Virus record (IMG/VR): IMGVR_UViG_3300020048_000046
Strand: one strand, 5' to 3'
Length of the DNA stretch: 59,139 bases
Origin: an uncultured virus (IMG/VR IMGVR_UViG_3300020048_000046)
Taxonomy: Duplodnaviria > Heunggongvirae > Uroviricota > Caudoviricetes
Position numbers and translations under genes: made by a program. Numbering within the stretch: position 1 is the first letter of the stretch; each line of letters opens with the position of its first letter. The notes below the pieces were generated by a model. That model was not told the DNA's origin. It saw nothing but the letters and a program-made list of their open reading frames with translations, and made no database searches. Positions 52,101 to 52,782 of the stretch are shown piece after piece.

Positions 52101-52782
52101 CGAAGAATTAAAAAAATGGTTTTGGGATAAATTTAATTCATGCTATTATGTAAAACATTCTGATTATCCGGAAAGTTTATTTATGTATTATGATAAAAAT
52201 TTTGCCAGACAAAAAAAATTAGCAAGAGTTTTAGACCAAGATTTAATCTATCCATCAAAAATTGAAGGTATTTGCTTATTTGAACAGGATTATAAAATTG
52301 AGTGGTTGGTGTGTAATTATAAAGAAATTTGGTCATTTTTTGAAAATAATTCTACATATAACTACATAAAAATAAGAGACTTAATTAAAGGTTGGTTGGA
52401 AGAGGCACAAAAATTAACGGTATTATCACCTGATACCAATGTTGGTTATGATAATTTTGAGTTGGAAGAGGCACAAAAATTAACGGTATTATCACCAGGA
52501 ATGTTATTGGCAGGCAAAGCCATGGTGTTGGAAGAGGCACAAAAATTAACGGTATTATCACCAACACCTGAAGAACATAAATTACTTCAACAGTTGGAAG
52601 AGGCACAAAAATTAACTGTATTATCACCAAACACTGAAACGACAACACCAAGAACTTCGTTGGAAGAGGTACAAAAATTAACGGTATTATCACCGAAGAT
52701 GTTCAGGCAGAAGAACAAACAATTGTTGCAAGAATCAATAAAATTATCAATATTAACACCAATAGAAAAAACGAGAATTTAG
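52093..52782 (+). CDS. array-fused family member; reads through array 4
   Basis: N-domain followed by [12 protein letters not shown] units. Confidence 0.85.
52395..52760 (+). CRISPR. CRISPR-like array 4: 6 repeats, 5 spacers of 30 nt
   Basis: GTTGGAAGAGGCACAAAAATTAACGGTATTATCACC at 52395, 52461 and 52527; single variants at 52593 and 52659; degenerate at 52725. Confidence 0.82.

Follow-up and report, generated by a model that had tools for sequence, protein, structure and literature searches.

The IMG/VR virus record IMGVR_UViG_3300020048_000046 (59,139 nucleotides (nt); the window, by which we mean this whole stretch of DNA) carries four arrays of repeats and spacers, among them array 4 at 52395-52760, each lying inside a protein-coding gene. 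[quoted passage not shown] A fuzzy search with the array-2 repeat found 29 repeats, all on the + strand, which make up the four arrays and one solitary copy. The repeats are 36 nt long, and the spacers are all exactly 30 nt save one of 31 nt. The first approximately 100 residues (the N-domain) are conserved among six paralogues in the window, and each array extends the 3′ end of its gene in frame:

52093-52782, + strand: gene P0003 (229 amino acids), with the N-domain at 52093-52394 followed by array 4 in frame; stop codon at 52780-52782
52395-52760, + strand: array 4, six 36-nt repeats at 52395, 52461, 52527, 52593, 52659 and 52725, with five 30-nt spacers
24491-25171, + strand: gene P0001 (226 amino acids), with array 1 at 24793-25158, six repeats in five sequence variants
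25238-26089, + strand: gene P0002 (283 amino acids), with array 2 at 25540-26037, eight repeats, the first six identical
33702-34671, + strand: array-3 gene, with array 3 at 34127-34625, eight repeats
11174-11575, + strand: paralogue (133 amino acids) with a single repeat at 11476-11511 and a degenerate second motif
52864-53307, + strand: paralogue P0004 (147 amino acids) with two decayed motif units (WLIDVSKLYSLFF, WLDDPTKLDWLIP)

Translation of the repeat gives L-E-E-x-x-K-L-x-V-L-x-P, and that of each spacer gives ten unrelated residues; array 4 is accordingly a 12-residue motif alternating with 10 variable residues, and its sixth repeat is degenerate, as are the last one or two repeats of every array in the window. 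All internal spacers of the four arrays (24/24) are stop-free in the repeat's frame, a result beyond chance, given that 47.5% of shuffled spacers are stop-free. The fourth spacer of array 3 (34361-34391) has 31 nt and shifts the frame, yet the four spacers that follow contain no stop in the frame of the repeat. The 5′ part of the array-3 gene matches Phage_30_3 (E 2.5e-21); because a run of N at 33944-33994 covers the junction between this part and the N-domain, a fusion and two adjacent genes cannot be told apart there. With five variants among its six repeats array 1 is an old array, and P0004 is a fossil array.

Arrays of related phages change at the gene-proximal end

Relatives were collected from 25 IMG/VR loci and 70 metagenome loci (95 in all), to which five loci from a genome collection were added later. 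Units were located by a strict peptide pattern, which misses decayed units, and identical arrays were counted once, reducing 87 arrays to 50 unique ones with 174 internal spacers (88 arrays, 51 unique, in a rerun with the five additional loci). Neighbouring units lie 66 nt apart in 144 of the 174 cases, the other distances including 65 nt (six cases), 64 nt (three), 67 nt (two), 69 nt (two) and 90 nt (three), and arrays reach 10 units. Nearly all spacers (158/174) are unique and without mutual similarity, and the repeats that flank them are identical even at synonymous sites.

Where non-identical arrays have spacers in common, they share the distal ones and differ gene-proximally, in 9/9 pairs from five locus groups. 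The window itself supplies a further group, in that the metagenome protein P0006 equals P0003 minus its first two (gene-proximal) units; the one-sided pattern thus holds in 6/6 groups, with no opposite case. The arrays of L045, L001 and L034 form a nested series; those of L035, L003 and L047 have three distal spacers in common behind one, two and four private ones, and those of L028 and L038 carry four and one private spacers. The 300 nt upstream are 93–100% identical within pairs and 100% identical in L028/L038, L003/L047, L027/L037 and L058/L063, which indicates that the turnover of units outpaces point substitution. Under a single crossover of two paralogous arrays, the proximal spacers would be kept and the distal ones changed, the reverse of what we observed. 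In a weak 151-nt contig from run X3 (depth 3), the part of array 4 that begins at 52659 follows an upstream spacer other than that in the window.

The arrays therefore show several of the features generally asked of a CRISPR array, namely constant repeat and spacer lengths, unique spacers, polarised gain and degeneration of the terminal repeat. Composites in which two blocks differ in repeat type (L002, L026 and L001/L034) show that exchange, or a change of the first repeat, also occurs. The recombination of paralogues that had been proposed from the window alone is plausible on the strength of these composites and of the first repeat of array 1, which carries AAATTAACGGTATTA (ATTAACGGTA as a private variant) like array 4, as the original prediction said. 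Separately, the 8-kb contig L099, binned in the 25% GC metagenome-assembled genome (MAG) G007, has arrays with the same repeat at both ends (803-1305 and 7535-7763), in convergent orientation.

The arrays are filtered for translatability

Among the 136 unique 30-nt spacers, 122 are stop-free in the frame of the gene, against 47.5% of shuffled spacers (binomial p = 2e-25); in the other five frames the stop-free counts are 86, 58, 62, 85 and 65, and the 22 unique spacers of other lengths were excluded from these counts. The arrays are thus filtered for translatability, and inserts with stops or frameshifts are strongly under-represented. Disruptions do occur, a stop or frameshift being present somewhere in 19 of the 50 unique arrays. 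The extreme case is L026, in which 8 of 9 spacers are disrupted (stops in seven, and one spacer of 20 nt) and the repeats are near-identical within two blocks. Since these repeats are near-identical without an open reading frame (ORF), array growth is a DNA-level process that needs no ORF. As a cause of these stops, stop-codon recoding was considered but discarded, since all of TAA, TAG and TGA are present in L026. Among the 20 newest lineage-specific spacers, four are disruptive, three of them at the first position by manual tally (p = 8e-4 against 43% open).

Spacers are probably captured natural DNA

The spacers have a GC content of 0.36–0.38; the window stands at 0.25, and the loci have a median of 0.24. 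At the three codon positions, GC in the 136 unique 30-nt spacers is.38/.37/.34, close to that of stop-filtered shuffles (.39/.38/.37), whereas phage genes have.37/.30/.14, and the bases of these spacers are strand-symmetric (A.320, T.316, G.186, C.177). An ordinary tandem repeat would consist of homologous whole units with the codon usage of the genome; here the spacers are unrelated to one another, and their GC at third codon positions (GC3) is 0.33–0.34 versus 0.14 in phage genes. Spacer GC shows no trend with repeat divergence or array position.

One spacer could be traced to a source. Spacer 1 of L004 and L042 (L004:1547-1576) opens with 7 nt of 5′ flank, and its other 23 nt match exactly the 5′ end of transfer RNA genes, tRNA-Ala(TGC). 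This stretch has at least 120 matches in IMG/VR, and 10/10 matches tested with ARAGORN proved to be tRNA-Ala genes that start at the match; the array gene reads the fragment as LFGGLAQLAR. Their composition, the missing codon-position signal and the tRNA-Ala fragment suggest that the spacers are captured natural DNA and not diverged coding sequence. Another spacer, at L005:6468-6497, holds a CCCC-TTTA-GGGG hairpin followed by a T-rich stretch, is read as KSPLGDLGGL and looks like a captured intrinsic terminator.

Repeats vary as codons between fixed edges and share no RNA hairpin

The repeat consists of codons 102-113 (L-x-E-x-x-K-L-x-V-L-T/S-P), with which the conserved part of the gene ends, and of one preceding base. 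Its residues are conserved also in family members that have no array, as is required of a neo-CRISPR, in which the site sequence exists before the array. Within the window, repeats of different arrays differ at up to 7 of 36 positions; the array-4 repeat departs from the majority array-1 form at six positions, the number given in the original prediction, and repeats 4 and 5 of array 1 do share GTTTG. That prediction also held that the start, the length and the peptide pattern of the repeat are kept. The start GTTGGAAGA, the 36-nt length and LEExxKLxVLxP are indeed found in the non-terminal repeats of arrays 2-4 and in most of array 1, but the terminal repeats are degenerate, and the GTTGGAAGA 5′ end belongs to one sub-family only, others beginning with ATTATCAGA, CCTGTCAGA or ATTGGTAGA. 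Forms across the family include LEEHDKLQALTP, LVEHDKLQALTP, IKETDKMSVLTP, LSDTTKLNVYTP and LEETIKLSLLTP, among others.

For the constraint analysis we used 38 of the 105 unique repeats, choosing the first or dominant form of each array. Codon 1 encodes Leu in 36/38 variants through five different codons, TTG (16), TTA (8), CTG (9), CTT (1) and CTA (2); codon 6 is Lys in 38/38, codon 7 is Leu or Met, and codon 12 is Pro in 37/38, the remaining one being TCN. The pooled ratio of non-synonymous to synonymous polymorphism (pN/pS) is 0.76, which is uninformative because four codons vary freely, and the per-codon table was used in its place. Other constraints act on the DNA. Codon 11 is ACA in 35/35 Thr cases, though Thr at codons 4 and 5 uses ACT, ACC and ACA. 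The base preceding the Leu codon (-1), which falls at a third codon position, agrees with its counterpart in the first unit of the array in 151/174 units, compared with 50/174 for the -2 base and 47/174 for the first spacer base (+37). Constraint at the -1 base and at the 3′ edge defines a conserved unit of exactly 36 nt that is out of codon register, and the 3′ end ACACC and the unit length are kept at the DNA level. Variants therefore change where the protein tolerates it and are fixed at Leu1, Lys6, Leu/Met7, Pro12 and the unit edges (3′ ACACC and the -1 base). Selection on protein coding and on acquisition, both proposed earlier from the window, finds support in the synonymous variety at Leu1 on the one hand, and in the 36-nt length, the ACA codon and the one-end growth on the other. 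That earlier inference is right for the most part, the tie to Cas13b excepted.

RNA structure shows no such conservation. RNAfold predicted a GCCUC/GAGGU stem for the array-2 repeat (-6.3 kcal/mol, z = -1.6; 14/200 shuffles fold as well), while the majority array-1 form and the array-3 and array-4 repeats reach -0.9 to -2.4 kcal/mol without it, and the solitary copy folds differently; the stem is thus confined to array 2, in line with the original prediction that it is weak or absent in arrays 1, 3 and 4. Across the 38 variants, the array-2 stem positions are paired in 38.4% of cells compared with a shuffle mean of 38.0%, and sliding the stem partner gives similar or higher values. RNAalifold returned 0 pairs, and Rfam, including CRISPR-DR, gave no match to the repeats. 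A conserved covarying hairpin, the finding that would have spoken against the earlier proposal, was therefore not seen. Of the features of a type VI-B repeat, the 36-nt length is present and the conserved stem-loop is not, the stem occurring only in array 2. Without a conserved hairpin, guide-RNA function, with Cas13b especially, is probably not what maintains the repeats, and nothing here supports the tie to Cas13b that had been drawn: no cas gene was found in the window or the related records searched, and there is no Rfam match. Loss of the hairpin alone would not exclude a guide of the type II kind, which pairs with a trans-activating CRISPR RNA (tracrRNA).

The N-domain defines a protein family

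AlphaFold2 (23-row alignment) modelled residues 1-105 of P0003 with a predicted local distance difference test (pLDDT) score of 88–95 and the tail with 30–47, and the predicted order of elements in the N-domain is a helix, two strands, a helix, two strands and two helices; a single-sequence model of the domain was poor (pLDDT 50) and was not used. None of the four proteins had a significant family match in Pfam or PHROGs. Fold searches with the model yielded no PDB match at E ≤ 0.001 (Foldseek), a best E of 0.047 in BFVD and, in a wide PDB search, only matches to the low-confidence tail with Z below 6; the ESM Atlas gave no usable match. An N-domain profile retrieved 564 clusters (E ≤ 0.001) among 1.84 billion representatives, with the domain nearly always N-terminal. 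Among the best 149 of these clusters, 35 have at least one strict motif, and of the multi-motif cases 32/39 show the 22-residue spacing. Family members without arrays end in one to three decayed motif units, which implies that old units are retained as protein. At L021:5083-8194 we also noted seven or more tandem N-domain paralogues with one to three decayed motif units each, many of which end in K-[LI]-x-I-Y-E and look like fossil arrays plus a conserved C-terminal end.

Genomic context of the window

The window has 24.9% GC and tightly packed short ORFs, mostly unannotated; no tRNA genes were found in it, and INPHARED held no DNA similar to it. Its Pfam matches are of very-large-phage type and comprise a YunG-like phage protein, DUF7448, DUF7487 and a Dam methylase as well as the ART-PolyVal, CUB, ClpB-like, FtsH-like and ClpP proteins listed below. 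Related IMG/VR records of 214–256 kb are rated only 30–36% complete, which indicates phages of several hundred kb. Further features of the window are:

37173-40606, - strand: three adjoining genes with ART-PolyVal ADP-ribosyltransferase domains (Pfam E 1e-20 to 3e-26)
18146-19687: CUB protein carrying a C-terminal sorting domain of type IX secretion (Por_Secre_tail; Pfam)
4830-8476: ClpB-like ATPase split in two genes with an unrelated gene between them (Pfam)
50217-52100: FtsH-like M41 peptidase gene, whose end overlaps the start of the array-4 gene
55577-56341: ClpP protease (Pfam)
33944-33994, 18061-18107 and 50096-50105: three stretches of N, respectively 51, 47 and 10 nt long

The Por_Secre_tail protein hints at a Bacteroidota host. 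The split ClpB-like ATPase, the FtsH-like peptidase and ClpP amount to a phage-encoded protein-quality-control set. Tandem repeats of other kinds are also present, with 81-nt (27-residue) units in 5–7 copies in - strand ORFs at 57315-57885 and 58739-59139, one of them with a PKD domain, and a 63-nt repeat at 43820-44079. A promoter and terminator scan of 51900-53400 gave no excess over shuffles.

A candidate mechanism of array growth

To our knowledge, insertion of approximately 30 nt accompanied by duplication of a 36-nt target is a signature of Cas1-Cas2, and we know of no other such process. We propose that a Cas1-Cas2-type integrase with a 36/30 ruler would add the units singly, and that it would most likely come from the host, as part of a class 2 (II-C-like) adaptation module that acts in trans where the phage gene offers a leader-repeat-like site, in a manner comparable to off-target formation of neo-CRISPR arrays. 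Selection would then purge the insertions that break the frame, so that the arrays would be translated into a disordered tail with a constant 12-residue motif and arbitrary 10-residue linkers, each gain supplying one further copy of the motif. In the reading that we prefer, the motif would be the working part of this tail and the spacer an arbitrary linker; an alternative reason for the open frame would be avoidance of polarity on downstream genes. Published work lends this plausibility: in Flavobacterium columnare, Cas1 of the II-C locus fills the VI-B array in trans despite a different leader and repeat, and both arrays have 36-bp repeats and draw spacers from phage and host DNA (PMC8092290, excerpt); in type II-A, 10 bp of leader, the repeat ends and a ruler determine integration (PMC6895254, excerpt); and off-target integration can found neo-CRISPR arrays (Nivala et al. 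2018, cited in bioRxiv 10.1101/148544, excerpt).

Several results weigh against growth by CRISPR-type integration followed by selection. No cas gene was found among the ORFs of the window (78 ORFs with Pfam, 72 with PADLOC), no Cas1, Cas2 or Cas9 in four viral records of 214–256 kb or in MAG G006, all of them fragments, and no Cas1 in a fifth viral record, a 38-kb fragment; for cas13b there was no Pfam or PADLOC match in the window, the related records not having been searched with a Cas13b model. A bacterial array with the phage repeat was not found either, the pattern having 0 matches in contigs of the genome collection and also 0 in IMG/VR, and a Cas1-linked array was seen in MAG G007 alone, its 37-nt repeat being unrelated. 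As neither integrase nor host array was found, the integration step is one that we infer. The repeat 5′ ends differ among sub-families, and one integrase would not fit them all. A source was identified for one spacer only: 624 kb of DNA from related phages contained no protospacer, and there was none for arrays 1 and 2 by blastn against INPHARED (only AT-rich chance matches outside the spacers) and none for the L099 spacers in MAG G007, and three 24-nt spacer cores were absent from IMG/VR. Spacers beside diverged repeats have a GC of 0.357, compared with 0.366 beside identical repeats, and this lack of AT-enrichment is unexpected if spacers age in a 25% GC genome. Finally, 16 of the 20 newest spacers are already open, which means that selection must be fast or that the process itself is biased.

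These points have to be set against three other explanations. The arrays could be ordinary protein tandem repeats, in which a 22-residue unit expands by slippage or unequal crossing-over, the linker diversifies and gene conversion keeps the motif, with no integrase involved. Such an origin would account for a period that is a multiple of three and in frame, for protein-level constraint on the motif and for the members with decayed units, which resemble normal repeat proteins; the AlphaFold2 tail forms a loose coil resembling leucine-rich repeats, though with pLDDT 30–47 and Z below 6, and coding tandem repeats are known to be mistaken for CRISPRs (PMC5294841, excerpt). We nevertheless judge it quite unlikely. 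It would have to produce mutually unlike spacers, 158/174 of them unique, beside repeats identical at synonymous sites, a unit that begins one base ahead of the codon boundary, and spacers that lack the codon-position GC pattern and strand skew of the phage, one of which is a tRNA gene fragment; it would also have to confine change to the proximal end while the upstream gene stays 100% identical, and to keep repeats near-identical in L026 where there is no ORF.

A type II repeat can do without its own hairpin, and the full CRISPR geometry, polarity and terminal degeneration suit working phage-borne arrays, which would supply guides to a host or phage effector (VI-B, II-C or other), the open frame merely protecting the transcript (for example, from Rho termination) or the downstream genes from polarity. 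The 36/30 geometry is that of Bacteroidota II-C and VI-B loci (PMC8092290, excerpt), and Por_Secre_tail hints at such a host. This explanation, too, seems to us unlikely: one effector or tracrRNA would hardly serve four arrays in a 59-kb window whose repeats differ at up to 7/36 positions, repeat variation follows codons with neither a conserved structure nor an Rfam CRISPR-DR match, an anti-repeat with up to 11 mismatches is absent from the window, the searches of the window and related records revealed no cas gene and those of phage collections no protospacer, and old arrays with diverged repeats are retained as coding sequence (the L008 group and L032). Assemblers might, lastly, have mixed the spacers of paralogous arrays, and contigs from public runs do break inside this gene family. 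That the arrays are such artefacts is scarcely credible, given that the L008 array recurs base for base in six other IMG/VR loci and two metagenome loci and the L014 array in L015 and L016, that the 6/6 one-sided pattern is unlike random chimeras, and that a 36-nt repeat is shorter than usual assembly k-mers.

CRISPR-type integration with selection for translatability, the account that we favour, would constitute natural CRISPR integration into a virus's own coding gene with a translated product, and would link adaptation to protein diversification. It would also provide a concrete natural example of neo-CRISPR birth from coding sequence, and would show which repeat features an integrase requires (length, 3′ ACACC and the junction) once guide-RNA constraints are gone, since the remainder of the repeat evolves as codons. 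More tentatively, very large phages might use spacer integration as a protein-writing device, in which the leader-repeat-like site at the end of a multi-copy gene recruits the integrase, every event supplies a further functional 12-residue motif and a 10-residue peptide encoded by captured DNA, and the gains tune the valency or diversify the surface of a host-interaction protein much faster than point mutation; this is a possibility that we put forward with some doubt, and under it CRISPR adaptation would serve protein evolution and not nucleic-acid immunity. As a practical warning, CRISPR finders would call such genes arrays, and gene callers would call such arrays genes.

Comparison with known systems

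Viruses are reported to carry mini-CRISPR arrays, and huge phages arrays, without adaptation genes and presumably served by host machinery (reportedly in the work of Medvedeva et al. 2019, Faure et al. 2019 and Al-Shayeb et al. 2020). Those arrays are said to be non-coding, to use the host's repeat and to hold spacers against rival viruses. Unlike virus-borne mini-arrays, none of which is reported as lying in frame within a gene in the literature searched, the arrays described here are an in-frame part of a gene. With the II-C and VI-B arrays of Flavobacterium columnare they have in common the 36/30 lengths, one-sided growth, degeneracy of the last repeat, a spacer of 29 or 31 nt now and then, and the capture of non-phage DNA; in that species an array that lacks cas1-cas2 can be filled in trans (Hoikkala et al. 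2021, PMC8092290, excerpt). Unlike in F. columnare, the phage repeat is coding, the array is open and read as protein, repeats differ at up to 7/36 positions and there is no conserved hairpin, and no cas gene or phage protospacer was found in the records searched.

Neo-CRISPR arrays resemble them in that sequence beside a leader-like site is duplicated into a repeat and no nearby cas genes are needed; those arrays are short and arose in E. coli chromosomes under induced Cas1-Cas2 (Nivala et al. 2018, via bioRxiv 10.1101/148544), whereas the arrays in the phage genes have up to 10 units, occur family-wide and are filtered for translatability. False CRISPRs, too, have a repeat–spacer look inside an ORF, but by definition they lack spacer diversity (Zhang & Ye 2017, PMC5294841, excerpt), which here amounts to 158/174 unique spacers with one-end turnover. 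Another near likeness is to engineered in-ORF adaptation reporters, in which leader and repeat lie in the reading frame and spacer gain alters the protein (PMC5583386, excerpt); those are laboratory constructs, whereas the phage arrangement is natural and its 66-nt gains keep the frame. Full-text literature searches did not turn up any natural CRISPR-type array described as being read as protein, and what is new here is a CRISPR-type array that lives inside a phage gene and would be translated.

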